DNA of 27,596 nt from Chiloscyllium plagiosum. Taxonomy: Eukaryota. The DNA is taken from the NCBI RefSeq assembly GCF_004010195.1, contig NC_057751.1, positions 18,863,543 through 18,891,138 on the forward strand. Direction: 5' to 3'. The notes under the pieces are model-generated. The model worked only from the letters and a program-made list of their open reading frames with translations. It had not been told where the DNA came from and searched no databases. Every line of letters begins with the position of its first letter. Position 1 is the first letter of the stretch. This document shows, one piece after another, positions 1 to 26,047 of the stretch. The position numbers and the translations under genes were made by a program.

Positions 1-2670
1 TGCGGGGCAGTAATGAACACCTGTTTCTCCAATGTTTTCTCTCGAGTATGATACGCTTCCAACATGTTCACATGACATACCCAATACTTTTGTCTTCTAT
101 CTGGCATCTTTAATAGCTAGTTCACCCCACTCAACTTTTTCTGTATTTCACTGGGGCCACTGAACCTGGCTTTGAAGCGATCACCTATCACTGGTAACAG
201 GACTAACACATTATCCCTTCTGGAAAATGTCTGAGTCTCTGATCATTTAGCTACCACCTGCTTCATTGTCTCTGTGTCCTATTTTGGTGCAGTTTATCAA
301 ACTCACCTGCTCGATTTAATCTCTCCCTTACCTCCGATACATAAATTATGTGTGAGATCTCCGATTGTGGTCCTGTCACTATTTTTTCCAATAAATTTCA
401 ATTCATGATCGATTATTAACTCAAAGGGAGTGAAATGAGTTGATTATTTAGGGACATCTCTAATGGCCAATAATGCGAATGGGATACCATCATCCCAATC
501 ATTCGGGTAGTCCTGACAGTATGCGCTCAACATGTTCTTCAGGCTCTGTTGCTAACTTTCCAAAGCACTATGAGATTCAGAATGATACTCCGTGGATTTA
601 AAGTGCTTTGTACTTAAGCTATCCATAACCTCCTTCAATAACCTAGCAGTAAACGTTGACCCTTGGTCTGACTGAATCTCTCTGGTTAGCTCATACCGTG
701 TGAAGAAAGCTGCTAACTCCTTTACCATTTTTTTGCCTTGATACTCCGCAATGGAGATGCCTCCAGAAATCTGGTAGGCACATGTATTATAGTTAACAAG
801 TAGTGGTCCCCACTTTTAGTTCTCGGGAAGGGACCTCTACGCTTGAAAGGTTCTTCAAATGTATGAATTGGCAACAAAGGTTCTGGTTTTATAACTGCAT
901 GTGGCTTAACTACTATTTGGCATGTATGACACGGACAGCAAAAGTTAACAATATTCCAGGCCAATAGAATGTTTCTGTACCATTGTCTGAGTCTTTTGTA
1001 GCCCGAAATGAACTACTCCAGGTAGTTCATGTGCGATCCATAACAGCTTCGGTCTGTATGCTGCCAGCAACACAATCTGATGCACTTTGGCCCAGTTCCT
1101 CTCTGCACTGACAAACTGTGGTCTCCATATCCATTTTAAGACTCTCTATTGCAGATAATAACCCTCCTGAGTATTCTTTGCCTCATTTTCAGAGTATGCA
1201 ATCACATATATTTATTTTATCATCTTGTTTTGCTGTTGCAAAACTCTGACCCTTCCAGGACTGAACACTTTTGTCTGTTCGCGGTTTTTCTTGCAACATT
1301 ACGTAAAATAGGGTATCTACTGACTGAACCTCAACTCCTTAATCTTTGTCTTTATTTCTCGCTTCGGGCTAGGACTTAGGATAGTGGGATTGGTATATCG
1401 CAAAGTCTGGGAAAATATCAGGATATTTCTGTTCTAACTCCTCAGTTTCTAGGACATCCTTAAGGTACTCCACAAGAATGGATGCCACTCCCACCTTCGA
1501 CCCTGCCAAATCATTCCCAAGAACAAACTGAATTTCTGGAACTATCACTCTTTCAATCAGTCACACTGTATCTTCGCCAGTCTTGATTTGGCACTTCAAC
1601 CTGATTTTATATAGGCAAAAGCTAAATTATATCCATATAATCCCACAAATTTACACACTCTCATGTAATATATCAGAAAGAGTACATATTTTGTCATCTG
1701 TTACTGTCAGCGACAGGTCAGATCCTGTATCTCTCAAAATTATAACTTGTTATCCTTCTTCCCCTGTTTTTTTCTGAGTAACGTTTAGCCAGATAGGCGA
1801 GTTTTTCCATATCCAGCACCTACCAAAGCTGTGCAATCTCCTCGGATCTTCTTGTGTCTACTTTACAACCTCCATTAAGGTCACGGGCTTAAATTCTACC
1901 ACATCTTTTACAACACCACCCTTCTTTAACAATCAGCACTGTGAATTTACGTTTCCCACTTTAAGACAGTGGAAACACCTGCCGCCTTTTACCTTCTTGC
2001 AAACCTCTTGGATTTATTTTTTTATCCGGATGTAAGTTCTTACCAGTGCGACAAATACCTCATTCGCTATGCCTTCCAGTTCAATCTGAACTAGCATTAC
2101 CCATAAATCCATGGTCTACATCTTCTGCTGAGTCTTTTTTTTTCAAGTGAAATAAAGAAGGCTTCAACGTATTTCTCAACAAAATGTGACAGAACTTTGA
2201 CGTTTCTGCCAAATCACTACCTTCTCTTTTTATCTCCATTCTGTGAACTAAAATGTGCTGATTAAGTCGCAACTTCTGAAGATCAATTACTCTCTCTTTT
2301 TGCTCAGCCATGAACTTTCTGTCTCTTTGTTTTCCTCTCTCTCTCCACTTCTCCCCCCTCCCTCTTTCGTCTCTCTTTTTTCTCTTCCTTTCTTTACATT
2401 CTCTTTTTTTCATCTCTCTCTCTCCTTTCTCTCTCTTTTGCTTTCTTCGCCCTCCTTCCCTTTCTGTCTCCCTCTCTCATTCCTCTCTCTCTCGCTTTAT
2501 TTATCTTTGAAGACCATGTTCCTCAATAGTAATTTAATCTTTTCTACCTCTACTGCACTTGTCTGTTTCTGTGACACGCTTAAGTTTTTGAGTAATCCCC
2601 TGATAAGTTCAGCTTTTTCTTTTGTCCTTGGTTAAATCCAAATCTAACGTATTTGTTAATTCGAAAAGAC
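1..2670 (-). mobile_element. Decayed Ty3/Gypsy LTR retrotransposon, Gmr1-like (gag - protease - integrase order), running off the left edge
   Basis: Minus-strand translation gives, in order: E/R/K-rich coiled-coil gag (2290-2660), zinc knuckle remnant RCFHCLKVGNVNSQC (~1934-1980), aspartic protease VIILRDTGSD (~1717-1746), integrase HHCC (IAHELPGVVHFG ~1000-1040; CHTCQ ~918-935), core IQSDQGSTF (~650-680) and C-terminal ARFSGP...CHVNML (~60-170). Many stops and frameshifts. Confidence 0.88.
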
Positions 2671-4030: not shown

Positions 4031-4684
4031 GTTTCAGTGGTTCTGCTATCTGTCAAGCTTTTATTTTAATTTCTGTCTTATATTTCTTAGCAGTAAAACT
4101 TTTAATTTTGTTTCATTTTCAACAGGTTTTTGAAATCATTTGGTATTCTCCACGCTATATGCCTAATTCGTAGAATTTCTCTTGAATTTACTTGTAAACC
4201 TAATTCATGCATATTAAATGTACACTATTAATGTCCTGGATTGAAAGGTCCAGTGCGAGTCAATCTGTTAAACTGCCTAATTCTTTAAAGTATCAACATA
4301 TCTAGCACATTTAATGTGCGAACTGAATTATCTCAATAAAAGAACACTTGCATCCTATAACACGAGAATCTTGTCCTGTCAGCGTAATTTCAATTGGGCA
4401 AACCTTTGCTTTCAGAATCTACACAAAATAATGTCAAATCAGAAACAGATTCGATGTTGCTTGAAACATCAAAAACATCTTCGGAGACAATGCATCTTCG
4501 ATCCTACATTATTTTCCATAACGAGAATTGGCAGTTTTGGGGATTTTACAATTCATAACATGTTTCATGACAGAAATTTCACTAAGATTTTTCAATCTGT
4601 TTTCTTTTTCAAACGCAAAACAAATATATTGTTAATTAACTTGAAGGATGCCGCAACTTCAAAATCCCCCTGGAGATCCCACCA

Positions 4685-4692
4685 TTTATAAT
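4685..4692 (+). promoter_or_regulatory. Possible TATA-like box upstream of GPCR exon 1
   Basis: TTTATAAT about 90 nt upstream of the ATG at 4778; the paralogue has a variant TTTATTAT at the aligned position (~24197-24204, minus). Motif only, in AT-rich DNA. Confidence 0.25.
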
Positions 4693-4777
4693 TACAGGAC
4701 TCTCGAATATGCAATTCAGAGTTTTATACGAATGCATTGTCTTCAGGACCAGTCGACAAGCAAGTACGCTAAAAGAA

Positions 4778-4844
4778 ATGCTCGACTTTTTTTATAGTAT
4801 CCGGAAAGTATGGTATTTGCTGCTTGCAGTTATTGGAGTGCCTG
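4778..4844 (+). CDS. GPR139-like: GPR139-like class A GPCR, coding exon 1 (MLDFFYSIRKVWYLLLAVIGVP + 1 nt)
   Basis: ATG at 4778 (A at -3), 67 nt encoding the N-terminus and first half of TM1, ending CCTG|GTAAGT (consensus donor, phase 1). Joins in frame to exon 2 giving IGVPVNLV. A homologous exon is present in the inverted paralogue. Confidence 0.9.
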
Positions 4845-5656
4845 GTAAGTGTTTATCTGTACTGCTCATCTCCTCAACGTTCTGTCTTGCCTGAGTTCTG
4901 TTGATATATGTGTCAAGATGGTCACCAAGATCTCGCACTGATGAGAGAACTGAACTGTGCGTCTCCGGAACAGCTCAACATACCGTGTAAATCAATTTTG
5001 GACTTAATATGTTTTCTTGTAATTTGATTGGCGAAGTAACATTATGTCGCTTATCATTTCAACTTCATCTTTGTTTCTTAAAATAAATCTGCGCTTTTAT
5101 ACCAATATCGAAAGACAAATTGTACTTTCTTTCCCTGAGTTTTCAGTGTTAATAAATTGCCATTCACTATTTTGCCGAATATCCTGCATTCTCAAATCAG
5201 ATGCATAATTCATTACGGGTCGGTCAAACAATGGGTCTTTGTAGATTTGTTTTGACTGGGTGAACCAGGATGAACATGTCCAAATGGGTTTAAACTGAAT
5301 GCATTCAACCAATCGAAATGGAATATCAGAGAATTCCCTCTACAGTAAATTTCGATCGAAGTATGACAGTAATCAGTGTGGATGCAACTAAGCAATCCTG
5401 CTAAACATTCAAATGATTATTTCAGGAAACTGAATCCTCCACTCTATTTACTTCGTTTCTTTTGTTTCTAAAAGACTCAACTGCTGTCAAAGACACAGTT
5501 TTTTTTAACCAGTCATGAAGATATTTGACAATGTGTGCAGAGAGTGATGTTGTTCAGTGTGGATTGAATTGAACCAATAGAATGCAACATGCACAATTCA
5601 AAGATGGTTGAGGAGCAGAACTGAGCTGCAACGATGTGAAAGAACAACTTGAAACG

Positions 5657-6040
5657 ATCACAGAGTCTTTGAGTCCTGCAGCATGGAGACAGGCCCATTG
5701 GCTCAAACTGAAACATGAAAAACAAAATGTCTATCAACGCTAACATTATTTCCATGCACTTGGCCCGTATCCTTATATTCCTTTCCTATCCATGCATTTT
5801 TCCAAATGCCCCATAAATATTGTTAAAATACACGCTTTAACTACTTCCACTGGCAGCTCATTCCATATTCTTACCATACTCTGTATTTAAAAAGCCCCTC
5901 AAGTTCCCTTTTATTCTGACCTTTCTAACGTTAAACTGATGCCCTCTAGGCCTCGATTCCCCAACACTGGTAAAAAGATGGGAGTACATTGACCCTATCC
6001 ATGCTTCTCATGATCTTACACACCTCAATCTCCTATGCCT
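5657..6040 (-). mobile_element. CR1 LINE 3' fragment in the GPCR intron (antisense to gene)
   Basis: Same motifs as other CR1 3' ends here (acagagtc..gagtc tail, acaggccc, ccactggcagctcattccat, ctatccatgcttctcatgat). Absent at the aligned position of the paralogue (~23240). Confidence 0.75.
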
Positions 6041-7562
6041 GAAAGAGAAAAGGAAAAGAAAATGAAATTGATGAAAATCTTAGCAGGTCTGGCTGGCACC
6101 ATTGGGAATAGAAAAAGCTCAGTTAACATTTTGAGGTAAAGATGAATCGAATATCTTCTCTCTCCTTGCCAGTGAAAGAACTTTGCAATCATTAAGATTT
6201 CATGTTAAATGATATACATTCAGAGAATAATTTTTGTCCTTCATCTCATTTACTATGCCATCCATCCACTGCATATTCTTTGTGTCTTATGATATTGCTC
6301 TGCAGCAAAAGTTTATTTATTAATTTTCACACCTGTCTAACAAGCCTTACACACCTTTTCCTCCTTTTCTCATTCCTCAGGTATCATCATATCTGTTCCA
6401 CTCCTCACCGATGAGAATAGAGGTTTATTTAACATTGAAAATACATTCATCCAATATTACATATTCTCCTTTGTGCTATTACATTGTAAACAGCTCTTCA
6501 ATGGATGGTTTCAATTACTTTTTCTCTGGAACTGATTTGCTTTGTTTCCATGTTCATGCTATCATGTACTGTTTGTTGTTGTCAATGATCTGTGAGCCTG
6601 CATACTTGGAGCATTGTTTTGACATAACAAAACATTTAAGGGGTGAAAAGAATTTTCATTTCATTCTTCATCTCGTAAGCCAGCATTGCATGGCTCGCTT
6701 TATTTCAATCCATGTTTTGGAATCATACTTTCGGAAATTGCATTTGCATTTTCTGTGTTTCACCTGTGATTTAACTTTCTCACGTACTCTTTACATTTTT
6801 TAATTTTTGTAATTGTGCATCTACGTCCCTGAACTATGCTGTGGATCTTACTGATGAGCAATCGTGATCGCGTGGATTTTCCTTTGTATGCAATATGGCT
6901 TCTACCTTTCCACCAATCTGCGGTAAATGTTGGAACTGGTTAGCAATGGTGGATTATGTCATGCAAATCCTCTTGCTCTGAGATTAGTATGAAATCTTTA
7001 TGTAAAATTCTGTTGAAGTTCTTCAGCAAATTTATTTATTTATGTTGCAACCACTCTTTTAAAGGATGCTTAAGATGAATGCATAAGAACTCCTCTTAAC
7101 TACTTGTTGTAGTTCGAGATGGTGTTTCTTAAAGATGCCTGCAAGAATTGCAAAATCTATAATTATTGATAATGCTATTTCAAATCTAGGTATAATGTCA
7201 GCTGTTCTTTAGTCTGTGGACACTATTCAACTTTTACTATCGTTGTTTATCAACATAATGATAGTTCTGCTCAATCCAACAACTTCGTTTTGCATGAATG
7301 GAATTTTTCTGAATTAGAATTCTTGTCATTTCTTTTACGTTAAAAGTTGTCTTCCACATAAAACGTTGCCAAGTTTTTTTGGTGCATGTAAGTAAGTATA
7401 ATTTAGCGGTTTGTTTTTTTCTCTCAACATTTTTCACACTGAAATCTTATCCTTTTTTTAATACTAGCATTAGTTTTACACAGCCAGCGTACCTGCCTTC
7501 CTTCTGTCCGCTTATGCCCACTCATAATTTTAACTACCACGGCAGAGTTTATCATATTCTTT

Positions 7563-7889
7563 AGGGAGTTTAGATCAGAGTGGTGCTGGAAAAGCACTGC
7601 ATGTCAGGCAGCATCCGAGGAGCGGGAATATCGACGTTTCGGGCAAAAGCCCTTCAACAGGAATAGAGGCACGTATCCTCCAGGGTGGAGAGATAAATTG
7701 GGGGGGGGGGGGAGATGCTGGGAAGCAGGTAGCAAAGAGTGCAAATCGGTGAATGGGGATCGGGATTGAGGTGATAGTTCCAGAAGGGAGTGTGGAACGG
7801 ATAGGTGGGAAGGGAGATTCGCAGATAGGACAGTGCTGATCTGGAAGGTTGCAACTGAGGCAAGGTGGGGTGTGGGGAAATGAGGGGAA
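7563..7889 (-). mobile_element. Penelope-like element 3' terminal-repeat fragment in the GPCR intron with 7-bp target site duplication
   Basis: Reverse complement matches 26056-26360. Flanked by ATTCTTT (7556-7562 and 7890-7896); the paralogue has the empty site (ATTCCTT, minus strand ~20762-20768). Confidence 0.88.
7629..7664 (-). ncRNA. Degenerate minimal type I hammerhead ribozyme motif (core CUGUUGA instead of CUGAUGA)
   Basis: Minus strand ATTC-CTGTTGA-A-GGGC-TTTT-GCCC-GAAAC-GTC-GATA; the conserved core A is substituted, so it is probably inactive. Confidence 0.55.
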
Positions 7890-8042
7890 ATTCTTTGTCA
7901 AATGAAAAGATCATTATAATTAAAATGGGTTGAATCCTTCATGCATATAAGCAAAATGGTTTTCAGAATGGGCAGTCATGTCTTTAGTGTGGCGGATGTT
8001 TAGTTACTAATTCCCAGCGTTGCTTTTCCCCTTGTTTTGCAG

Positions 8043-8953
8043 TTAATTTGGTGGCTGTTGTCATTCTCTCTCGTGGTAAGTGCGGACTCTCTACCTGTAC
8101 CACGCAGTATCTGGTGGCCATGGCAGTGGCAGATCTATTGATTATTATATTTGATGTCATGATGAAGCGACTCAATTTTTACTATTTCCCAGGATCTTGG
8201 CTGAATGTCACCTACGTCTGTACTGTATTTAGGGTTCTTACTCATGTATCCACAGACTGGTCAGTCTGGTTCACTGTCACTTTCACTTTTGATCGATTTG
8301 TGGCAATTTGTTGCCAGAAGTTTAAAAGTAAGTACTGCACTGACAAAAGTGCTGCCATGGTGCTTTCAACAACTGGCGTCCTGCTAGGTTTAAAGAATGT
8401 TCCAATCTACTTCTTATTTGAACCAGGAGAAATAATCAACAAAGTACCATGGTTCTGTAAGATAAAACCAAGCTGTTATACTGAGTCCGGGTGGGTGGGA
8501 TATGACTGGTTTGACACAGTATTAAACCCATTGCTGCCATTTGTATTAATTCTCCTGCTGAATGCTCTGACAGTCAGATATATTTTACTAGCTAGTCGAG
8601 TCCGTAAGGGACTGAAAGGCCAGAGCAATGGAATGAATCGCAGTGACCCAGAGATGGAGACAAGAAGGAAATCTTTGGTGTTACTTTTCACGATATCCAG
8701 CAGCTTCATACTATTATGGTTGACATATGTTCTGCATTTCTTATATTATACCATTACAGGAATGAATCCGAGATATTATAGCAATAACATTTATGTTTTT
8801 AAAGAAGTTGGATTTATGTTACGGATTTTAAGTTGTTGCACAAACACGTTTATTTATGGAGTGACTCAGTCCAAATTCAGGGAGCAGCTTACAAAAGCAG
8901 CGGTTTATCCATTTAAATCAATTATTCAGCACATTGACGATAAAAACAAATGA
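8043..8953 (+). CDS. GPR139-like: GPR139-like class A (rhodopsin family) GPCR, coding exon 2; spliced product 325 aa
   Basis: Polypyrimidine tract plus TTGCAG acceptor (AG 8041-8042). Open frame to TGA at 8951-8953 with seven-TM motifs: TM1 N, TM2 MAVADLL, TM3 Cys and TFDRFVAIC, ECL2 WFC, TM5 PLLPF, TM6 FILLWLT, TM7 SCCTNTFIY. Matches the shark family commonly annotated 'probable G-protein coupled receptor 139'; orthology to GPR139 itself is not established. Confidence 0.93.
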
Positions 8954-9207
8954 ACACACGCCATATCAATGTCTGCATGCTTCCAGTGGTTGATGTAATA
9001 TTAGAACTATTCTTCGATCAAACGAACGGTGTCACATATGGAATGGCTGAGTGAATGACCTAACAACCACAGTAAATAGGATGCGACAACATTTTGAAAT
9101 CTGACAATTAGTTTGGAAGAGTGTCATTCATTTGTTTTCCACTGGAGTTATTCCGTGCATGTCGAGTACAATTTTTAAAGACAACATGCGTGTTCTAGTT
9201 GCAAAGA

Positions 9208-9213
9208 AATAAA
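9208..9213 (+). terminator. Candidate polyadenylation signal of the GPCR gene (second AATAAA at 9267-9272)
   Basis: First AATAAA hexamers seen downstream of the stop codon, about 255 and 315 nt after it. Confidence 0.45.
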
Positions 9214-9859
9214 CTTGCATGAGCCAATGAATAGAGCTGTTTGTTAATTGAATACATCACATGTTAAATAAATTAGCTGACCATTCGACTGGCTTTCAGC
9301 ACATTCCTGTGGTTGCCTAATTCACATTTTAACTACATACTGAGAAAAACATATTCCTGCATCAGGACTCTTCAGAATGCATTCTATCTCCAAAACCCTA
9401 GTTTTGGCTTTTACCTCAGTGAGAAAAAACCCCCTCCATATCATCCATGTACAAACCACTCTTAACTTGAAGGAAATTTCTTACGTTGACTCGCCATGCT
9501 GTATTTGTATAAAGTAAAATAGTCAAACACTTTCCATTTTTCTGAAAGCTACGTTTTCTAACTGCTGACAAAATATATCATCAAAACATTTCTCAAGAGG
9601 CACTCAGTTCTTCATTTATCAACGCAACCCTCTTCCCTGCCAAATTTCAGAGTTTGAACCATGACTGTAGCTCTGTCTTTGGATTGTGGTACACAAAGCA
9701 TAAGTACCACCGGCCAAATGTGACATGAGTTCAAATATGTAAACTATTAACTTTGGTTTGACAAATATAATGAATCTGCGCTTTCAAAACGTGTTTGTAG
9801 TTATCTGGTTCCCTTGCAGGAGGATGTAGGCAATTTATGTAAAAGTGTCCAATTTAAGC

Positions 9860-10260
9860 ATGCAGTTGCAAACAGCTCTCTGCGTGACTGGGTGGATTCT
9901 AGCTCACCCAGATTCAGGGTTCTTTAGTTTTGCTTTCAGTTCAGTTGATTTGGATTTGGTTGACTCGCTGCTTGAGCTAAAAGTTGAATTCTCTGTTGCT
10001 TGTGTGAAGTCTTAGTCGGAAACTCTTCCACTTAGGAATCAAAAGAGAGACGTTTTGGGGCTTTTTTCCCTTGTTTACTATAAGTGAGCTGGAGAGAAAT
10101 AGCTCGTGAGAATAAAACAGTTTTACTGAATTGTCGTTACCAAAGGTTTCTTTGGTGGGTGCTGCTATAATGAAACAGCTGATTTGTGCTTAACTAACAC
10201 CTTAACTTGTCAAGTAAGAAAAGTGTTAAGAATAAGCCAAGTAGCCTTTGACGAATGAGC
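9860..10260. mobile_element. Possible decayed LTR fragment
   Basis: Starts where paralogue homology ends; T-rich with AATAAA (~10111) and wording reminiscent of shark Gypsy LTRs. Recollection only; no termini found. Confidence 0.3.
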
Positions 10261-10545: not shown

Positions 10546-10860
10546 GAGTTCAATTTTTTTAAGACAACATGCGTGTTCTTGTTGCAAAGAAATAAACTTT
10601 CTATGAGCCAATGAATAGAGCTGCTTGAGAATTGAATACACCACATGTTAAATAAATGAGCTTACCATTCGGCTGGCTTTCTGCACATTCCTGTGGTTGC
10701 CAAATTCATATTTTAACTACATACTGAGAAAAACATATTCCTGCATCAGGACTCTTGGGAATACATTCTATCCCCAAAACCCCAGTTTTGGCTTTTACCT
10801 CAGTGAGAAAATTCCCCTCTGTATCATCTATGTGCAATCCACTCTTAACTGTAAGGAAAT
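10546..10860 (+). repeat. Direct duplicate of the GPCR 3' UTR/polyA region 9164-9477
   Basis: Near-continuous match, e.g. AAGACAACATGCGTGTTCT, GCAAAGAAATAAACTT, TTTTAACTACATACTGAGAAAAACATATTCCTGCATCAGGACTCTT. Confidence 0.92.
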
Positions 10861-10887: not shown

Positions 10888-13800
10888 GAGTCACAGAGTC
10901 ATAGAGGTGTACAGCCTCGGTCCAACTCGTCCATATTGACAGGTATCCCAACACAATCTAGTACCACCTGCGAGCACCCAGCCCATATCACTCAAAACCC
11001 TTCCTATTCATATACCCATTAAGATGCCTTTTAAATGTTGCAATGGTACTAGCCTCTACCACTCCCTCTGGCTACTCATTCCATATATGTGCCACTCTCT
11101 GCGTGGAAAATTTGCCCCTTAGGAATCTTTTATATCTTTCCCCTCTCACCCTGAACCTATGCCTTCTAGTTCTGGACTCCCCCATCTTCAGGAAGAGATT
11201 TTGTCTATATATCCTATCCATGCTCCTCATGATTTTATAAACCTCTATATGGTCACCCCTCAGCCTCTGACCCTGCCGGGAAAACAACCTTATTCAACCT
11301 CTCCCTGAAGCTCAAATCCTCCTGTTGTAATCTAAGGTACCCTTCCTCACTGTCCACTACACCTCCAATTTTAGTGACATCTGCAAACTTACTTGTTATT
11401 CTCACATCCAAATAATTTTATGTAAATGATGAAAAGTAGTGGACACAGCATCGATCCTTGTGGCACTCCACTGGTCACAGGCCTCCAGTCTGCAAAATAA
11501 CCCTACACCACCACTCTCTGTCTTCTTCATTTGCGCCAGTTCTGTATCCAAATGTCTAGTTCACTCTGTATTCCATGAGATCTAAACTTGCTAACCAGAC
11601 CCCTATGGGGAATCTTGTTGAACGCTTTACTAAACTTCATATTGATCACGTCCACCATTCTGCCCTCATCAATCCTCTTTATTAGCTCTTCAAAAAAACT
11701 CAATCAACTTTGTGAAACATGATTTCTACCGCGCAAAGCCATGTTGACTACCCTTAATTTGTCATTGCCTTTCCAAATACATGTACATCCTGTCTGTCAC
11801 TCCAACAACTTGCCCACCACCGACGTCAGGCTCACTGATATATAGTTCCCTAGTATGCCCTTACCATCTTTCTTAAGCAGAGGCACCACATTAGACAACC
11901 TCCAGTCTTCCAGCACCTCACCTGTGACTATCGATTATGCAAATATCTCAGCAAGTGGCCCAGCAATCACTTCCAGAGCTTCCCACAGCGTTCTAGAGTG
12001 CACCTAATCAGGTCCTGGCAATTCATCCATTTTCATGTGTTTCAAGACATGCAGCATTCCCTACTCTGTGAATGGACATTTTTCAAGATGTCACCATCTA
12101 TTTCCTTACATTCTATACCTTCTGTGTCATTTTCCACAGCAAACACTAATGCAAAATGCTCGTTTAGTATCTCCCCCATCTCCTGTGGCTCCACACAAAT
12201 GCCACCTTGCTAAATCATTGAGGGGCCCTGTTCTCCCCCACGTTTGTCTTTTGAACTTCATCTATTTGTAAAAACCCTTTGGATTCTCCTTAACTCTAAT
12301 TTCCAAAGCTATCTCATGTCCACTTTTTGCCCTCCTGATTTCTCTGTTAAGTATACTCCTACTACCTTTATTCAATCTACCTTGTCTACCTGACAGATGC
12401 TTCCTTCTTTTTCCAAACGAAACGTTCATTTTATTTTAGTCCTCCAGCATTCCCTACACCGACCAGCCTTTCCTTCCACCCGAACAGAAATCTATTCTCT
12501 CTGGACTCTCGTTACCTCATTTTTGAGGGCTTCCCCTTTTCCAGCCATCCCTCTACCTGTGAACATTTGCCCAAAAATCAACTTTTGAAAATTCTCGCCT
12601 AATCCCGTTAAAATTTCTCCAGTTTAGAACTTAAACTTTTATATCTGGTCTGTCCTCTTCCATCTCTATTTTAAATCAAATAGAGTTGTAGTCGCTGGCC
12701 CCAAAGTGCTTCCTCAGTGACATCTCAATCACCTGCCCAAACTTATTTCCCAAGAGTTGGTCAGGTTTTGCACCTTCTGTAGTAGGTACATCCAAAGTTG
12801 AATCAGAAAATTTTCTTGTATGGCAGTCCCAGTCTATGCCTGTAAAGTTAAAATCCCCTGCCATAACCACGCTATTATTTTTTCTAGATACCTGAGATCT
12901 CCTTACAAATCTGTTTCTCAATTTTCCTCTGACTATTAGGGGGTTCATAATACACTACCAATAAGGTGATCATGCCTTTCTTATTTCTCAATTCAAACCA
13001 AATACCTTCCCTGGATCTATTTCTAGGAATATCCTCCCTCTGTACAACTGTAATGCTATCCCTTCTTTAAAAGAAAGCTACTCCCCTATCTCTCTTGCTT
13101 CCCTTTCTATCCCTTCTGTATGATTTGTATCCTGGAATATTAAGATGCCAGTCCTGCCGATCCCTGATTCACGTTTCTGTAAACCCAGTCCCATGTTACT
13201 CACCATGATCTGAGTTAGTCTGCCTAACGTGTTAGCCCTCTTGCATTGACATAAATGCAGTTTAATTTATCAGTTCTACCTTATTCTCCGTTTTGTTCCT
13301 GCCTGCCCTGACTGTTTGACTCGCTTCTTTAGTCAACACTACCAGTCTCAGATTGATCTCTTTCCTCACTACTTCCCTGGGTTCCACCCCCCACCTTAAT
13401 CGTTTAAATCCTCTTGAGCAGCTCTGGCAAATCTCCCTGCCAGTATATTAGTCTCCTTCCAATTCAGATGCCACCCAACATTCTTTTGCAGGTCACTTCT
13501 ACGCTATAAGAAATCGCAATGATCCATACACTAGCTCCTCAGCCATGCATTCATCTGCTCTATTCTCCTATTCCTACTCTCACTAGCTCGCAGCACCTGC
13601 AGTAATCCAGAGATTACTACTCTCGAGGATCTCCATTATAAATTCTTGCCTAACTATCGAGAGTACCTACAGTGTGCAAACAGGCCCTTCAGCCCAACAA
13701 GTCCACACCAACCCTCCGAAGAGCAACCCACCCACCTATTCACCTACATTTACCCCTTCACCTAACATTAGGGGAAACTTAGCATGGCCAATTCATCTAA

Positions 13801-14269: not shown

Positions 14270-14370
14270 AGGGGATTTTAACTTTCCAATGATAGGCTGG
14301 GACTGCCATCGTGTTACAATTCAATGGGGAGGAATTTAAGAGTTCAAGAACACTCTCTCAGTCAGTATAT
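14270..14370 (+). mobile_element. Short CR1 endonuclease fragment
   Basis: GGGGATTTTAACTTTCCA..TGGGACTGCCAT (GDFNFP..WDCH), matching the reverse complement of ~12820-12860. Confidence 0.6.
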
Positions 14371-14560
14371 TTCCTGCACATCTAAACAGCTCATCTATTG
14401 TTTCCGTTGCACTCAATGTGGTCTCCTCTACTTTGGGGAGACAGAACGCCAACACAACAACATCTCTGAGGGGCACGCAGAAAAAAACCCACCACCTGTG
14501 GCCGGCCACTTCAATTCTTCTTCCCTCTTCGCCACGAAAATGTAGGTCCTTTTTTTCCAC
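14371..14560 (+). mobile_element. Penelope-like GIY-YIG endonuclease fragment
   Basis: SCTSKQLIYCFRCTQCGLLYFGETER..PVAGHFNS, homologous to 25635-25740. Confidence 0.8.
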
Positions 14561-14949: not shown

Positions 14950-16318
14950 ATAAGACCATTAGACCAGAAGACATAGGAGTGAAAGTAAGGCCATTCGGCC
15001 CATCGAGTCCACTCCGCCATTTAATCATGGCTGATGGGCATTTCAACACCACTTTCCCGCATTCTCCCCGTAGCCCTTAATTCCTTGTGACATCAAGAAT
15101 TTATCAATCTCTGCCTTAAAGACATTTAGTCTCCTCCCCTAACGGAAACAATTTCTTAGCGTCCACCCTTTCCAAGCCATGTATTATCTTGTAAGTTTCT
15201 ATTAGATCTCCCCTTAACCTTCTCAACTCCAATGAGTACAATCCCAGGATCCTCAGCTGCTCCTCGTATGTTAGACCTACCATTCCAGGGATCATCCGTG
15301 TGAATCTCCGCTAGACACGGTCCAGTGCCAGTATGTCCCTCCTGAGGTGTAGGGCCCAAAACTGGACACAGTATTCCAAATGGGGCCTAACCAGAGTTTT
15401 ATAAAGTCCTCAGTACTACCTGCCTGTCCACTTATCTTCGTATCATTAGCAAACTTCGCTAGAATGCCCCCAGTCCCTTCATCCAGATCATTAATATATA
15501 ACGTGAACAGCTGCGGCCCCAACACTGAACCCTGTGGGACACCGCTTGTCACCGGCTGCCATTCCAAAAAAGAACCTCTTATCCCAACTCTCTGCCTTCT
15601 GTCAGACAGCCAATCCTCAATCCATGCCAGTCGCCCACCTCGAACACCATGCGCCCTCACGTTACTCAGCAGCCTCCCGTGTGGCACCTTATCCAAGGCC
15701 TTTTGGAAGTCTAGATAGACCACATCCACTGGGTTTCCCTGGTCTAACCTACTTGTCACGTCTTCAAAGAATTCTAGCAGGTTTGTCAGGTTCGACCTCC
15801 CCTTACTAAATCCATATTGACTTGTTCTAATTTGACCCTGCTCTTCCAAGAATTTAGAAACCTCATCCTTAACGATGGATTCTAGAATTTTGCCAACAAC
15901 TGAGGTTAGGCTAATTGGACTATAATTTTCCATCTTTTGTCTTGATCCTTTCTTGAACAATGGGGTTACAACAGCGGTCTTCCAATCATCCGGACTTTTC
16001 CTGACTCCAGTGACTTTTGAAAGATCTCAACCAACGCCTCCGCTATTTCCTCAGCCACTTCCCTCAGAACTCTAGGATGTAGCCCATCGGGGCCAGGAGA
16101 TTTGTCAATTTTAAGACCTTTTAGCTTTTCTAGCACTATCTCTTTTGTAATGGCAACCATATTCAATTCAGCCCCCTGACTCCCTTTAATTGTTGGGATA
16201 TTACTCATGTCTTCCACTATGAAGACTGACGCAAAGTACTTATTAAGTTATCCAGCTATTTCCTTATCTCCCATCACTAGGCTTCCAGCATCAGTTTGAA
16301 GTGGCTCAATGTCTACTT
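14950..16318 (-). mobile_element. Younger 5'-truncated CR1 LINE with internal deletions (RT domain)
   Basis: ORFs 15966-16217 (KSPGPDGLHPRVL) and 15292-15960 (PISLTSVVGKILE, YLDFQKALDKVPH, GVPQGSVLGP, KFANDTK with mutated catalytic DD); repeat tail ataagacc/attagacc/agaagac at 14950. Confidence 0.93.
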
Positions 16319-18480: not shown

Positions 18481-19417
18481 ATTAGCTCCAACCGCCAGTC
18501 ATCAGACTCCAACTCAACAGAACTTTGACAACACGCCCAAGCGAGGAAAGCCGCATACCACACACCTCTGAAAGTTACAGAATTATCACGCATGTCAGAT
18601 CAAAGTTAATGGTCTGTGGATTTCTACTTAGATCACATTGGTTGTGCAGTATTTATGCAGTCAGTTGCACAATTCAAACACAGCGTTACGTACAGTCATG
18701 CTTCAATCTTTTGAAATTTATCAGGGAAGGGGATTTCTGTTGATGAATGTAGAACTGGGCCCCTAGTGGGTAAAGCAGCTGTAGTTTTGCTGTTATTGTT
18801 TCGATGGAATTTATCAGAAATTGGAAAACCCAACTGTCAAAAGATGGAAAAAGTTTGACTACTTTTTAGTTCTTAATTGTACAACATGTGAAGTAATTGT
18901 ACGAAATTTCCTTCAAGCTAAGAGGAGATTGTACGTGGATGATTATGGAGCAAAACTTGCCAATGAGGTAAAAGCCAAAGGTGGGGTTTGGGAGAATAAG
19001 AATCTAGATGCGTGAATATGCTTTTCTCAGTATGCAATTAAAGTGTGGAACAGGCTACCACAGAAAGGTGCTGAAATCAGGCGGAATGGTCAGATCAAAA
19101 ATATACTAAGTAGTGCATTCAATTCTCCAGCACCTTTATTTATTATCTCCTGGCAAGTTTACTTATTTGCAGCAAAAGCATGTATTTTGTCTTAAACATT
19201 TGAACTGAATCTCCTCTGAGTAGCTTTGGGGGAATGCACATGAATAGCACTTCCCCAATCTAATTGTCAGAACACTGATTTCAAAATAGTGCCGCATCAC
19301 ATTTACAGTGCTGGCGACGTCATTTGTTCAGCTATTCCACATGCCATACTGTTCATTTGATGGAAATCTTAAATCCAACCACTGGACATATGCAGACGAG
19401 GATATTGAGTATGCTTA

Positions 19418-20621
19418 TTAATTTTTATCTTTAATGTTTTGAATAATTGATTTAAGTGGATATACCATTGCTTTCATAAGCTGATCCGTGAATTTGGACT
19501 GAGTCACTGCATAAATCACCTCGTTTGCACAACAGCTTAAAATCCATAGTATCAATCTCACATCCATAAAAACATAAGCGTTATTGATATTGTACCTGGG
19601 ACTAATTCCTGTAATGGTATAATATAAGAAATGCAGAGTATGCGTCAATCATAAAAGTGTGAAACTGCCAAGCATAGTAAGACTAACACCATGGCCTTCC
19701 TTCTCATCTGCATCTCTGACTCACCGCGATTTGATCACAGGTTCTGACTTTTCAGTATCTTACGGACTCAGCTAGCCAATTAAATATCATTGACTGTCAC
19801 AGCACTCAGCACCATAACTAATACGAATGTTTTTAATGGTTTAAAAACTTCGAACCAGTCATATCACATTCATCCTGGCTTCGTGTAACAGCTTTCAGAG
19901 GCATGGTAGAACATAGAACGTAGAACAGTACAGCACAGAACAGGCCCTTCAGCCCACGATGTTGTGCCGACCACTGATCCTCATGTATGCACCCTCAAAT
20001 TTCTGTGACCATATGCATGTCCAGTCGTCTCTTAAATGTCCTCAATGACCTTGCTTCCACAGCTGCTGCTGGCAGCGCATTCCATGCTCTCACAACTCTC
20101 TGTGTAAAGAACCCGCCTCTGACATCCCCTTTATACTTTCCTCCAACCAGCCTAAAACTGGGAAATAGTCTCTGGCTATCGACTCTATCTATGCCTCTCA
20201 TCATCTTGATAAGTGGTAGCGTGTTGATTTTTTTTCTCCTGTTCCAAATTAAAACTACATCAGAACATTCTTTATTCAGAGCACAATGCCAATTGCGGGA
20301 AGCAAGATGGCTACGCTTTTGTCAGTGCAGCATTTAATTTTCAGCTTCTGGCAAAAAATTCCCACAAATAGATGAAAAGTGAAAGTGACAGTGAAACAGT
20401 CTGACCAGTCTGCGGATACATGAATAAGAACAGTAAATCCAGTGCAGACATAAGGTCTAATTAGTAAAATCCTGGGTGATAGTAAACATTGATTCGCCTC
20501 ATCATGACATCAAATATAATAATCAGGAGTTCTGTCACTGTTATGGCCACCAAGTATCGAGTGATAAAAGTCGTGAGTCCGCACTCACCATGGAAGAGAA
20601 TGACAAAGGCCACCAAATTTG
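19418..20621 (-). pseudogene. GPR139-like pseudogene, exon 2
   Basis: Aligns to 8043-8953 (C-terminal ORF 19418-19648: LHFLYYTITG..ILSCCANEVIYAVTQSKF). Acceptor AG changed to AA (20622-20623), DRF changed to HLF, TGA stops at 19864-19866 and 19870-19872, indels and a CR1 insertion. Confidence 0.93.
19910..20213 (-). mobile_element. Short CR1 3' end inserted in the pseudogene coding exon with 6-bp TSD
   Basis: ORF 19995-20204 RGIDRVDSQRLFP..FFTQRVVRAWNALP; (TTCTATG)-type tail; TGGTAG at 19904-19909 and 20214-20219. Confidence 0.92.
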
Positions 20622-21399
20622 TTGCAAGACAAGGGGAAGTAATGCTGAGAATTGCTATTTAAATCCACCTGTTGCGAAATGCATGGCTTTACATTCTGAA
20701 TGCCTTTTTTTGTTCAGGAGGGATTCAATCGATTTTAATTTTAACCCTCTGTTTATTCAACAAGGAATATGATAAAACTGCTGCAGGAGGTAGAAATGAG
20801 AATGGGCATAAGCGGGCAGAAGAAAGTGATCTCACCCAACCCTGTAAAGCTAACGATAGAATTGAAGAATGGATAAGAATTCAGCGTGAAAAATGCTGGG
20901 AGACAAAGACAAAATGCCAAATAATACGTGCTTTCATTCACCAGAAAACGCTGAAACACTTTGCGTGGAAGAGTCAGATAACTGATTAAAAATAACAAAA
21001 ATGACAAACAAAAGTTCTAATTCATAAATATTCCATTCCTGCATAACAAAATCGGTGGGGTACCGACACCATTATTAGATATTGATCAACAGTGGTATTA
21101 GTTTCAACAGACAAGAGACTTGTTGACATGATACCTAGATTTGAAATGGCTTTATAGGTAACTATAGCACAAGACTGTAGAAACCTTGACCAGATCTTAA
21201 ACAGCAATCCATCAAAAACTACAAGTTGCATGACTTTAACATTTAGAGATGTATTCAACGTGTGACTGCATTTGAAGCACAGGTGAAACACAGAAAATGC
21301 ACATGGAATTTGAGAGAAAAAATGACTGGAAACATGGATTAAACTGAATCGAACCATATAATGCTGGCTTCTGCGAGGAAGAATGAAGTGGAATTGTCT

Positions 21400-22365
21400 T
21401 CATAGAGTGGGAGAGTAACACAGCTTGGAAACGGGCCCTTCGCCACAAACTGGTCCATGCTGGCCATGGTGCCCGTGCAGTTAGTTTCAATTGCCAGGGT
21501 TTGATTCATATACCACTAAATCCTTGACATCCTCGGACCTATCAAAATGCCTTTTTAGATGCTCCAATTGTATCAGCCTCAACCACTTTCTCTGGTAGCC
21601 CATTCCATATACACACCAATCTCTGCATGGAGAACTTTCCCCTTAGGTCCTTTCTAAATATTTCCCCTCTCACCTTAGTTTTCATTTCATATCCCTGGGG
21701 GAAAAAAGAACTACCTGCATTCATCCTATCAGTACCGTCATCATTTGACACATCTCAATTATGCTATGCCTCATTCTCCTACGTTCCAAGGAATATAGTC
21801 CTATTCTGACTGAACTCTCCAATTAAACGAGGCACACTAGTTCTGGTAACATTATTGTAATTTTTCCTTGCACTCTTCCCAGTTTTACTATGCCTTTCCC
21901 ATAACAAGGTGAACAATACTCCAAGTGCGTCCTCAACAATGACTTATGCAACTGGAACCTAATTTCCCAACTACTCGACCTCGTCAATGCGTCGATCAAT
22001 GACGGTTCGCATGCCAAATGCGTTATTGACCAACCTGTCAATCTGTGACACTGCTTTCACTGAACTATGTGCTTGTTCTTCTCATACCCTTTGTTCCAAA
22101 ACATTACTCAGGACCTTAGCAGTTACTGCAGAAGTCCTACTTTGGTTTTACTTCCAAAGTGCGTTAACTCACACGTCTCTGTATTGAGTTCTATTTTCAA
22201 ATCCCCAACCCTTTTCCCTATCTGTTCAATTTGCCTCTGTAATTTTGAATAATGTTCCTCACTATCAATGATACTTTGAATTTTGTATGATTCACAAATG
22301 TATAAAATCTGCCTTGTACATTCTCATCCAGATCATTTATGTAAATAACAAATAACAAAGGTCTC
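21400..22365 (-). mobile_element. CR1 3' fragment in the pseudogene intron
   Basis: ORFs 21542-21751 (FSMQRLVCIWNGLP) and 21823-22041 (RTHLEYC..LGRVQ); absent at the aligned site (~6640) of the intact gene. Confidence 0.85.
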
Positions 22366-22734
22366 GGCGCCATCGATCTTTTGATATTGCAAAATAATAT
22401 TTAAGGTATGCACGCGAACAGATCATTAACAACAACAAACAGGTGATGAAAGCATTAAAATGCAAACAAAGCAAACGAGTTCGAGATCAAAAGTAATTGA
22501 AACCATACATTGAAGAGTTGTTAAATAATTTAATATGTGATAATATAGTAGAAAATATGTAATATTGGATGCAGTGCATTTTCCATTTTCAAACAAAATG
22601 TCTTTTCATGTATTCCTGTCAGGTAACATCAATATATTTTTCTCCGTTCCCTCACAGTTACCATTTGAATAATGTTTTCATGTCGTCATTCTTGCAATGA
22701 TTCACACAAAGAAAACTAAAATTAAAATACAATA

Positions 22735-22850
22735 CCAACGATGCTTGAAACCTGAATCAAGAACGGAAAGTCTAAAATAAATACATAGTATTTCACGCTG
22801 CATCAGTGAAGAAAGAAACAGAGTTCACGTTCAGATATCACCCGGTTTTG
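22735..22850 (-). mobile_element. Highly decayed Penelope-type terminal-repeat fragment
   Basis: atgcttgaaacctgaa..gcatcagtgaagaaagaaacagagttcacgtt resembles the common shark repeat related to 17165-17260; a similar relic lies at ~6075-6135. Confidence 0.35.
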
Positions 22851-24044
22851 AAGGAGACTTTTATTTTTCACGATGACAGACGGGAAGGACTGAAACATAT
22901 TGGAGGGTGCACAGAGAGAAAAGAGAAAAAGGACTAAACATTTTGACAGACTTGTAAGATCGGTGTGAAAATACGTTACTGCATCTTTGCTAAGTGAAAA
23001 GTCAACCAGACACAAATGGAAGAGATGGCAGTGTAAAGGACACGAAGGACAAAGCTTATTCTCTGAAAATGCAGTGTTTAAGACGATTTCCTAACGGCTG
23101 CAATTTGTTTTCAAACGCAGTGAGATGAAAGATATTTGAATCATATCAGGCTCAGAATCTTAATTGTGCTTTTACCTTTTCCGATGTACCATGCTTGCTG
23201 AGATTCTCCATCTTTTTTCTATTTTTAAAGATGGCTTTCCTTTCTTCTTTCATATGTCAACCATTCCGTTCTGCTACTAAACTCTCCATGAATAGTTAAC
23301 GTTTGATTCTGTTTGGTTCAATGTAATCTGTACTGAACAACATCACTCTCTGCACCTGTTGTGAATATCTTCAGGACTTACAAAAAAGGCACTGCCAATT
23401 TGAAATCAATTGTTTTTTTTAATAAATGGGTAAACAAATACAGTTGAGGGCACACTTGCCTGAAATTATCATTTGAACGTTTAACAGAATATTTTCAATG
23501 CTCTCACACCGAGTAACATCACTCAGACGAACGTCATTGAGATTCCATTTCGACTGGTTGCCCGCTTTGCAACCCCATTAAGATATGGTCACTCTGATTC
23601 ACACTGTCAACACAATTCTACAATGACCCGTTGTTTGGGCCTTACCTCAGTGAATTGTCCATCATGAAGTCTGATTTGACGATGCAGGATATTCCGGCAA
23701 ATAATGAATGGGTAGGTTACTAACCGTGTAAAGTCAAGTATGTCAACATTTTTGCTTTTGACATTGGTACAAGAGCCCTGAATTCTAATAAATTAAGCAC
23801 CAAAGATGTAGCATCAGCTGTTGTTGAAACAGCGCAAGGTCAGCATGTCCCATTGCCAATAAATGTACGAAAACACAGACCAAGTCACAAATCGATTTAG
23901 ACAGAAAGTTAGCCTGGTTCTGGAGACCTTCAGTCCTTTTCTGTCACCGTTGAGAGAACTTGGTGGCCATCATAACCTTAGTATGACCACAGCTCAGCGA
24001 AAGTGCAAGGTGGAGGAGGTGGGCAATGTGGAAAAAAAACGTAC

Positions 24045-24112
24045 TAGGCACGCCAATAGCTACAAGCGTCTTGTGACGTGTTTTTTCGGATGCTATGAAA
24101 CATTTCTAGCAT
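24045..24112 (-). pseudogene. GPR139-like pseudogene, exon 1
   Basis: ATGCTAGAAATGTTTCATAGCATCCGA..CTTGTAGCTATTGGCGTGCCTA|GTACGT aligns with 4778-4844; 68 nt versus 67 nt, a +1 frameshift in an A run. Confidence 0.88.
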
Positions 24113-25740
24113 TTTTGTCGTGCATACTGTTTTGTCGCTCGGTCTTGAACATAATATTAACGCAATAAACTCTGAATCATACATGCAGACTCCGGTAATA
24201 ATAAAGGGTGCAATCTTCACGATGTTATTGAAGTTGCAACACCCTTCAAGTTAATTACCAATCCTTTTGTTTTACGTTTCAAAAAGAAAACAGATTGCAG
24301 AAGCCTAGTGAAAATCATGTTAGAAAACATAATATATAGTGGAAAGTTTGAAGCACTATCAATTCTAATCATGGAAAATGAATTAGAATCGAAGTTGAAT
24401 TTTCTCTGATGATTTCTTTTCTTGTTTCAAACAACATAAAAACTGTTTCAGATTTCAAATTGTTTTGCATAAATTCTGAAGGCAAGCAGTTGTACACTCG
24501 GAAGCACACTGACAGTACCAAATCCTCGCATTATGGGTATGAAGCTGCAATTTTCGCTGAGGTCAGATAGTTAGCTAACATAGATATGCTTATACTTCAA
24601 AGAATTAGACGCTTTAACAAAGTGTCAAACTCCAGGTTGGATATTTATCATGTACAAATGCTTTGCATTAATGAGGTTTCAAAATAAACTCAAGACAAAT
24701 TAAATAAATTTGGCAGATGGCCTGCAGTATTACCAATGATTTCGGACGTCTTTTAGATCTTAAAGAAAACTCCATTAGTTGTACTGCCAAACCACGATGT
24801 AATATAAGTTTGAATCTGAAATAAGCTCTACAAAAAGCAGATCTCCTGAAATGAAAGTAGTCAGTGAAACAACACTAACTCTTCAAATATTCCTTGTCCA
24901 GTAATTGGCGCCACCTCGTTCTCCCGTGAGGAGCTTGAGCAATTCATCAACTTCACCAACACATTCCACCCTGACCTTAAATTTATCTGGACCATTTCTG
25001 ACACCTCCCTCCCCTTCCTGGACCTCTCCATCTCCATTAATGAAGACCGACTTGACACCGACATTTTTTACAAAACCGACTCCCACAGCTACCTGGATTA
25101 CACCTCTTCCCACCATACCTCCTGCAAAAATGCCATCCCCTATTCCCAATTCCTCCGCCTCCGCCGTGTCTGCTCCCAGGAGGACCTTTTCCACCACAAA
25201 ACAGACCAGATGGCCTCCTTCTTTAGAGACCGCAATTTCCCTTCCCACGTGGTTAAAGATGCCCTCCAACGCATCTCGTCCACATCTGCACTTGCGCCAT
25301 CAGACCCCACCCCTCCAACCGTAACAAGGACAGAACGCCCCGGTGCTCACCTTCCACGCTACCAACCTTCACATAAACCAAATCGTCCGCCGACATTTCC
25401 ACCACGTCCAAACGGACCCCACCACCAGGGATATATTTCCCTCCCCACCCCTTCCCTCCTTTCGCAAAGACCATTCCCTCCGTGACAACCTGGTCAGGTC
25501 CACGCCCCCCTACAACTCACCCTCCCATCCTGGCACCTTCCGTGCCACTGCAGGAATTGCAAAACCTGCGCCCACACCTCCTCCCTCACCTCAATCCAAG
25601 GCCTTGAAGGAGTCTTCCACATCCATCAAAGTTTTACCTTCACATCCACCAATATCATTTATTGTATCCGTTGCTCCCAATGCGGTCTCCTCTACACTGG
25701 GGAGACTGGACACCTCCTAGAAGAGCGCTTTAGGGAACAT

Positions 25741-26047
25741 TAGATTAGATTACTTACAGTGTGGAAACAGGCCCTTCGGCCCAACAAGTCCACACTGACC
25801 CGCTGAAGCGCAACCCACCCATACCCCTACATTTACCCCTTACCTAACACTATGGGCAATTTAGCATGGCCAATTCACCTGACCTGCACATTTTTGGACT
25901 GTGGGAGGACACCTGAGCACCCGGAGGAAACCCACGCAGGCACAGGGAGAACGTGCAAACTCCACACAGACAGTCGCCTGAGGCGGGAATTGAACCCAGG
26001 TCTCTGGCTCTGTGAGGCCTCAGTGCTAACCACTGCGCCACCATGCC
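25741..26047 (-). mobile_element. tRNA-derived SINE, HE1/V-SINE-like, nested in the Penelope element
   Basis: A box TGGCGCAGTGG (26030-26040), B box GGTTCAATTCC (25986-25996), conserved core, LINE-like 3' end and (TCTAA)n tail at 25741. Confidence 0.92.

Follow-up and report, generated by a model that had tools for sequence, protein, structure and literature searches.

A bamboo shark gene labelled GPR139 belongs to a large cartilaginous-fish receptor family that may be a chemosensory repertoire

In a stretch of Chiloscyllium plagiosum DNA, 27,596 nucleotides of contig NC_057751.1 (hereafter, the window), lies an intact gene for a seven-helix receptor whose homologues go by the name of GPR139, and the question it raises is whether that name tells us what the receptor does. 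We think that it does not. The comparisons reported here place the gene in a very large family of cartilaginous-fish receptors in which the ligand pocket varies from paralogue to paralogue while the cytoplasmic half is comparatively constant, and we give about an even chance to the reading that it is a working member of a repertoire that senses many outside chemicals, most likely in chemosensory cells.

The gene consists of two coding exons with an open frame of 325 amino acids (Table 1). This structure is accepted because of the splice signals and of a zebra-shark model of the same length, XP_048407419.1, which differs at 52 of the 325 positions; exon 1 matches the N-terminus of that model, and exon 2 by itself has no ATG ahead of the second transmembrane helix (TM2). 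Exon 2 matches Pfam 7tm_1 above the curated cut-off (E=1.7e-21), and a DNA run of the same species differs from 8290-8670 at one of 381 bases, a synonymous change by hand count. The product is a class A (rhodopsin-like) G protein-coupled receptor (GPCR). The zebra-shark protein, 84% identical to it, has an AlphaFold model (pLDDT 86, pTM 0.85) with seven long helices and helix 8, a hairpin in the second extracellular loop (ECL2; strands 148-154 and 157-163), and nearly no N-terminal domain; the top Foldseek matches are all class A GPCRs. Present in the window protein are N24, D53, the C82/C161 pair, DRF at 3.49-3.51, P188, W248 (W6.48), and N290/Y294; NTFIY replaces NPxxY, and there is no P6.50, both P6.50 and P7.50 being missing from most of the family. 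Within the family, C36, C82, C112, C113, C121, C161, D106, R107, P188, W248, N290, and Y294 are kept in 141-164 of 165 proteins. Unusually many cysteines recur family-wide, namely, C36, C41, C112-C113, C121, and C287-C288, in the first and second intracellular loops (ICL1, ICL2) and TM7 (137-164 of 165 proteins); those beyond the TM3-ECL2 pair are possible lipidation sites or additional disulfides.

By sequence as well as by fold, the nearest characterised relative is GPR139. Human GPR139 (PDB 7VUG, 9M42) is the best solved match of the window protein (phmmer E=7e-9, 24% identity), comes first against the family profile (E=1e-27, the next at 4e-21), and takes rank 1 in Foldseek (E=4e-11), and the Atlas neighbours are named GPR139 and FMRFamide-receptor-like. 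Nearly all homologues bear the GPR139 name in RefSeq and UniRef, and yet the view that the window gene is the shark orthologue of GPR139 or GPR142, as that name has it, stands next to no chance: against a top PDB match this remote, there are hundreds of closer paralogues, with 120 shark and ray clusters nearer to the window protein than GPR139 at 60-85% identity, and two other vertebrate gene lineages are nearer as well (31-33%). We read 'probable GPR139' in RefSeq as an automatic nearest-neighbour label, and as the wrong name for this family.

The function that goes with the name is a separate matter. GPR139 and GPR142 are orphan class A receptors that L-Trp and L-Phe activate. In GPR139, F109, H187, W241, and N271 are essential for activation by L-Trp and L-Phe (PMC5430874), and R244 is also among the residues of the amino-acid pocket (PMC8807744). 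Mapped by hand from alignments, F109 (3x33), H187 (5x43), W241 (6x48), N271 (7x38), and R244 (6x51) correspond to H90, D180, W248, F280, and Y251 of the window protein, one of the five being kept. An earlier, sequence-only reading of this locus had derived aromatic amino-acid sensing from GPR139 and GPR142; with the tryptophan alone retained of the four essential residues, and tyrosine in place of R244, that derivation loses its footing. Human GPR139 remains unsurpassed among solved receptors in sequence, profile, and fold, but at 24% identity, with those replacements, Trp/Phe nutrient sensing by the window receptor is very unlikely, and a single ligand class has no need for hundreds of distinct pockets.

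What the gene belongs to is a shark and ray family. Among 3962 candidate clusters (90% identity), 2346 match the window protein at E<=1e-5; we inspected the best 120, picked by similarity to the query, and the remaining 2226 may include non-family proteins. These best 120 of 2346 are all from sharks or rays: 73 from horn shark, 18 from sawshark, 11 from basking shark, five each from sevengill and smooth-hound, three from cloudy catshark, two from manta, and one each from zebra shark, small-spotted catshark, and bamboo shark. The 73 horn-shark clusters comprise 120 member sequences, spread over 23 scaffolds that differ in length, two of which carry 21 and 13 rows, and the one horn-shark cluster inspected for membership has nine of nine members from the same species. 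In an unfiltered search, E<1e-30 was reached by 109 clusters at 50% identity, many of which are fragments. Identity of the family to the query is about 35-85%. Eight of nine divergent family representatives bear names, all eight of cartilaginous fishes, including skate, stingray, and Callorhinchus milii; given the Callorhinchus milii member, the family lineage is, therefore, older than the chimaera-elasmobranch split. Contig depth in a DNA run, summed over five coding bins, is 349-32,663 versus 0-20 in non-repeat flanks, which is consistent with many copies, depth not being a copy number.

That run has no contig depth at 4601-5200, around exon 1, most other non-repeat bins having 2-20; such holes prove nothing. 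Assemblies of sequencing runs (Logan) contribute none of the 120 family rows, whereas they supply many rows of the conserved single-copy gene described below, and odd N-terminal extensions (300-526 amino acids) are common among the family models. Sparse RNA evidence from the tissues that are usually sequenced, or collapse during assembly, may explain the missing Logan rows and the odd models.

Next below the shark family come two vertebrate genes at about 30% identity. In an IQ-TREE analysis of 50 proteins, the 26 family rows join a gene of amphibians and sturgeon with support of 100/98, a conserved GPR139/142-like gene is the next branch (94/91), and amphioxus proteins fall outside; a FastTree on 98 rows agrees with this topology, these trees being built without true GPR139/GPR142, of which a motif check on 312 proteins found no sequence. 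The amphibian/sturgeon gene (for example, Pleurodeles XP_069092602.1; also in Xenopus, caecilian, and Acipenser, and 'probable GPR139' in RefSeq) shows 30-33% identity and has in common with the family the DR-x-x-x-x-CC motif of ICL2 and the DPE-RR-S motif ahead of TM6. It is represented by one row per species in 20 amphibians and sturgeon (21 of 25 matches). Unlike the family, it is apparently single-copy, with a nearly invariant pocket (0.97), and would, therefore, serve one fixed ligand. That pocket is basic, with R2.61, K6.51, K6.55, and R7.35 in 23 of 23 proteins. No characterisation of this gene was found in the literature searched.

The range of the conserved GPR139/142-like gene (coelacanth XP_005988539.1) takes in sharks, ray-finned fishes, coelacanth, amphibians, turtles, and squamates, each species having about one row; the best 120 of 145 rows name neither a mammal nor a bird. 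At 24-33% identity, it has the same size and layout but, unlike the family, keeps R6.51 and D7.36 as in GPR139, position 6.51 being arginine in 51 of 51 of its proteins and mixed in the shark family. Because it has its own shark orthologues (three rows), the window gene is not this gene. Two of its models are named 'TMEM183A isoform', which suggests a location in or beside TMEM183A. It may be the GPR210A/B of Rinne et al. 2019 (PMC6504862), although the identifiers of the coelacanth proteins named there do not occur in the supplement searched; the distribution of GPR210A/B matches that of the conserved relative or that of the amphibian/sturgeon gene rather than the shark expansion, and the word 'shark' is absent from the main text of that paper. 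These relationships are most simply read as the amplification, in cartilaginous fishes, of one ancestral gnathostome gene that bony vertebrates kept single or lost, so that the repertoire would have been built from a gene that survives, apparently as a single copy, in amphibians and sturgeon.

The pocket is where the copies of the shark family part ways. Mean pairwise identity at 25 generic class A pocket positions is 0.49 among the 73 horn-shark paralogues, whereas the 54 remaining TM positions of the outer half score 0.63 (p=0.035) and the 84 of the inner half 0.85; among 45 divergent representatives, the values are 0.26, 0.35 (p=0.011), and 0.63. The single-copy controls are reversed, with pocket, outer, and inner identities of 0.97/0.80/0.79 in 23 amphibian/sturgeon proteins and 0.76/0.62/0.74 in 51 proteins of the conserved gene. 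Across the 120 top-match proteins, 117 distinct pocket strings occur, and positions 2.61, 3.33, 7.35, and 7.42 show charge swaps. Between the window gene and its zebra-shark counterpart, however, the pocket is identical at 25 of 25 positions, the 52 differences all lying elsewhere (hypergeometric P=0.01), and the next-best pocket match to the window gene among the 120 is at 56%. Pocket identity is 0.96-1.0 at 0.84-0.85 non-pocket identity in all three cross-species mutual-nearest pairs; in 24 same-species mutual-nearest pairs, it averages 0.78 at 0.90 elsewhere, and in 918 same-species pairs at 0.80-0.85 non-pocket identity, 0.50. A pocket that is variable among paralogues and conserved between orthologues is the repertoire signature of the OR literature. 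As we read these identities, a variable pocket joined to a constant cytoplasmic half is the signature of a many-ligand repertoire with common signalling. The sequence-only reading, which had proposed a complete 325-residue seven-helix gene and, behind it, an expanded GPR139-related family that could form a chemosensory, gut-sensing, or immune receptor repertoire, holds up as regards the gene, the family, and the pocket: the gene has its splice sites, its 7tm_1 match, and its zebra-shark counterpart, the family is very large and clustered (at least 73 horn-shark clusters among the best 120 of 2346), and its pocket evolves as in a repertoire (0.49 versus 0.85 for the cytoplasmic half in horn-shark paralogues). 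With 24% identity to GPR139 and hundreds of paralogues, the gene is neither a single GPR139 orthologue nor part of a small family, two of the outcomes that the same reading had named as telling against it.

In the repertoire that we favour, the ligands would be varied outside chemicals, small molecules or short peptides, seated between the helices in their outer half, beneath the disulfide-tethered ECL2 hairpin, and the cells would be those of the olfactory epithelium, taste cells, or solitary chemosensory cells. After duplication, a copy would either die, as did the inverted neighbour described below, or change its pocket and then stay fixed on a new ligand. All members would couple to the same G protein; if GPR139 is a guide, this is probably Gq/11 or Gi/o (PMC12208981, PMC8807744). 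The very short N-terminus, the clusters, the pseudogene, and the pocket that is variable among paralogues support chemosensation, and sharks have very few OR, TAAR, and ORA genes (PMC10116579). Also in its favour, invertebrate Srw chemoreceptors are neighbours of this broad receptor clade (PMC3963977, PMC8514136).

Several points weigh against a chemosensory repertoire, or temper the pocket comparison on which it leans. The pocket positions were assigned by generic numbering, with TM6 and TM7 lacking the reference prolines, and the identities are without phylogenetic correction; the 18 sawshark paralogues show no difference between the pocket and other outer-half positions (0.64 versus 0.67, p=0.56); only three putative orthologue pairs underlie the pocket conservation; and an excess of pocket change among very recent copies was not seen in any of seven comparisons. 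Monophyly of the shark family alone is weak (88/59 in IQ-TREE). Immune GPCR families, FPR and MRGPR, can display the same repertoire pattern. As for tissue, a catshark library of brain and olfactory epithelium has no GPCR among its top 50 genes by abundance and specificity, and the same paper (PMC11979771) describes most shark OR genes as peaking outside the nose; repertoire-like genes, therefore, need not be olfactory.

An immune or barrier repertoire, in which granulocytes, macrophages, or epithelia would carry receptors for microbial, parasite, or damage-derived peptides or metabolites, in the manner of FPRs and MRGPRs, is the main rival, unlikely but far from negligible. The hallmarks are the same (clusters, a pseudogene, a short N-terminus, a variable pocket, and a constant cytoplasmic face), receptors for peptides and chemokines predominate among the closest solved relatives, and chemoreceptor-type genes are described in vertebrate immune cells (PMC13113109), as are shark ORs in spleen (PMC11979771). 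The near-identity of the pocket in the three putative orthologue pairs suits fixed ligands over a pathogen arms race but would be compatible with conserved microbial ligands. Receptors for endogenous or conspecific peptides, of neuropeptide-receptor ancestry and active in the reproductive tract, in sperm, or in neuroendocrine or pheromone signalling, are quite improbable, since 117 pocket strings in 120 proteins would call for an equally large ligand family, and we know of no endogenous ligand family of such size. The ECL2 hairpin of the model is nonetheless peptide-receptor-like, the pocket of the window protein contains the acidic residues D94, D177, and D180, and GPR139/142 share an origin with the MIP/sex-peptide, FMRFamide, proctolin, and myosuppressin receptors (PMC8514136).

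Turnover in the family has left its trace in the window as an inverted, tail-to-tail duplicate of the whole gene region, about 10.5 kb downstream of the intact gene, in which 4032-9763 pairs with 24851-18593. The pseudogene within it is identical to the intact gene at 738 of 950 aligned coding bases, with nine indels and 11 in-register stops, one of them at the last codon, and an insertion of ~300 bp in its exon 2 (about 20213-19900) resembles fragments of long interspersed elements (LINEs) in the window. Over 311 aligned codons, with stop codons excluded, the Nei-Gojobori estimates are dS 0.42, dN 0.22, and dN/dS 0.52, which suggests that the pseudogene was functional for a while before its death. 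The stops, the indels, and the lost acceptor on the minus strand thus bear out the dead paralogue that had been suspected next to the gene. What had been taken for the 3' remnant of a third gene is instead a 316-bp non-coding copy of the gene's own 3' flank, and the family profile detected no third coding segment over six frames of the window (best stray match E=0.078). Rapid turnover, also proposed at the outset, fits the family but not the gene itself, the pocket of which is identical at 25 of 25 positions to that of its zebra-shark counterpart.

The same features of the locus could be claimed for a largely non-adaptive, repeat-driven amplification of a small two-exon gene, with redundant copies and pocket variation that comes from relaxed constraint: the surroundings are repeat-rich, there is a dead inverted duplicate and a local 3' duplication, dN/dS against the dead copy is 0.52, and very recent copies show no pocket excess. 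This we consider highly improbable, given that 141-164 of 165 family proteins retain the structural residues, that the pockets are frozen between putative orthologues, and that the family spans chimaeras, rays, and sharks.

RNA reads tip the balance neither way. Four of 16 sequencing runs were compared with 4201-10200 at 85% likeness, the tissues of the RNA runs not being stated, and no read crosses the 4844/8043 junction. A single-cell RNA run, of which about 2 in 100 were read, gave 2115 records, nearly all on repeats; in this small sample, neither exon 1 nor the 3' flank had any depth, spliced joints were absent, and the reads that fell on 8201-8400, from both strands, were partial and paralogue-like. 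Another run gave one exon piece with 17 differences over 8250-8364.

No description of the shark expansion was found in the literature searched, subscription journals lying outside the search. The family names were not found in the supplements of the little skate genome (PMC10115646, three files, one a non-searchable scan), the whale shark genome (PMC8455134, 12 of 24 files), or the elephant shark genome (PMC3964593, where two unplaced 7-TM rows are not linkable to the family), or in that of the nurse shark spleen paper (PMC10529500, one small file), and 'receptor' and 'GPCR' are absent from the main text of the zebra-shark genome paper (PMC10620051). The family is, then, already in RefSeq under a wrong name but apparently undescribed as an expansion. 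A survey of vertebrate chemoreceptors (PMC10869828) names six families; that the shark receptors make up a seventh, derived independently from a neuropeptide-type (GPR139-related) receptor, numbering well over 100 members per genome, perhaps many hundreds, and sparse in olfactory or other chemosensory cells, we propose tentatively, as somewhat short of an even chance.

Published counts for sharks are very low for OR, TAAR, and ORA genes and reach a few dozen for V2Rs, a pattern explained in the literature (PMC10116579) as one of sensitivity being traded for discrimination; 32 canonical v2r genes are reported from the catshark (PMC11979771). At least 73 distinct receptors (<90% identical) in one shark make this small-repertoire puzzle directly testable. 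Were the family chemosensory, it would far outnumber the ORs, TAARs, ORAs, and V2Rs of sharks and would overturn the small-repertoire view of shark smell, bony vertebrates having kept at most one copy (amphibians, sturgeon). Were it immune, it would be a large unrecognised family of innate sensors in the oldest lineage with adaptive immunity. On either reading, the name GPR139 is wrong for more than 100 RefSeq entries, and Xenopus or axolotl, with the single copy of amphibians, offers a laboratory route to the ancestral ligand.

The flanks of the gene contain candidate control elements. The conserved upstream block (Table 1) stands out from the 69% identity of the 819-column upstream alignment, its level being reached in 131 of 5000 shuffles, and contains TTAATTAA. 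A TATA-like word lies downstream of the block at 4685-4692, 93 bp ahead of the ATG. The region 4593-4692 is a candidate family promoter, a function that the alignment can only suggest. An EBF/Olf-type site at 4665-4674 is attributed to chance, with two matches versus 7.25 expected. No 26-bp period, as an upstream satellite would give, appears among 22 tandem-repeat rows, and near both promoters lie only two-copy families attributable to chance. On the other side, 8954-9763 is a probable 3' untranslated region, the end of the transcript being placed by inference.

Much of the remainder is repetitive. Short high-copy repeat fragments lie in the intron at about 5780-6000 and 7566-7885 (self-BLAST, read depth). 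LINE fragments are found at 15292-16247 (-), 27025-27596, 11546-11834, and 19900-20213, with a Pfam match to reverse transcriptase RVT_1 at 15292-16023, and a short piece similar to 27025-27242 sits inside pseudogene exon 2. A decayed element at 24868-25743 (+) and 14282-14545 (+) looks Penelope-like, with a reverse transcriptase and then a GIY-YIG-like motif, no Pfam match being found at E<=0.001; the element at 24868 starts where the upstream similarity of the pseudogene stops (24851). Short broken frames at 552-1012 (-), with no Pfam match, resemble the integrase of a long terminal repeat retrotransposon. No other intact host gene was found in the window by the open reading frame list and a nine-protein Pfam scan, without gene prediction, and the window has no tRNA genes.

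Table 1. Coordinates of the receptor gene, its duplicates, and their flanks in the window
Feature	Position	Strand	Description
Upstream block, candidate promoter element	4593..4662	+	61 of 70 columns identical between gene and pseudogene
Coding exon 1	4778..4844	+	ATG, 22 codons and 1 base, GT donor
Exon 1 product	4778..4844	+	Extracellular N-terminus of ~10 residues, then first half of TM1
Intron	4845..8042	+	Single, phase 1, 3198 bp, inside TM1; from splice sites and self-BLAST
Coding exon 2	8043..8953	+	AG acceptor; remainder of TM1 through TM7, helix 8, stop
3' flank common to gene and pseudogene	8954..9763	+	AATAAA at 9208 and 9267
Non-coding duplicate of 9164-9477	10546..10860	+	316 bp, 90%; 285 of 313 ungapped columns identical
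Inverted duplicate of whole gene region	18593..24851	-	Upstream, exons, intron, and 3' flank; 66-79% identical by segment (self-BLAST)
Pseudogene exon 2	19415..20620	-	Stops, frameshifts, acceptor AG lost, LINE-like insertion
Pseudogene exon 1	24045..24112	-	One-base frameshift; GT donor kept

Set beside known systems, the window protein and human GPR139 have in common W6.48, P5.50, and the DR motif in TM3, as well as, we presume, a phase-1 intron in TM1; unlike GPR139, the shark receptor has lost P6.50, has a very short N-terminus, and exists in many copies per genome instead of as one conserved gene. Srw-bearing clusters of non-chordates are among the nearest Atlas neighbours (features 0.96-0.98, structure TM 0.85), and Srw is listed among the chemoreceptors of nematodes and molluscs, with 29 of 90 Aplysia chemosensory-like genes being Srw (PMC3963977); unlike a member of those expansions, the shark family is separate, at 24-32% identity at best, and the window protein has no Srw Pfam match. 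With the OR, TAAR, V1R/ORA, V2R/OlfC, T1R, and T2R families, the likeness is one of organisation and evolution, that is, clusters, pseudogenes, compact genes, and a pocket variable in paralogues and kept in orthologues. The window protein itself belongs to none of OR, TAAR, V1R, V2R, T1R, and T2R, as only 7tm_1 matches at E<=0.001 and none of these is named among the top matches, and it differs from the vertebrate chemoreceptors in that its nearest relatives are receptors of the neuropeptide type.

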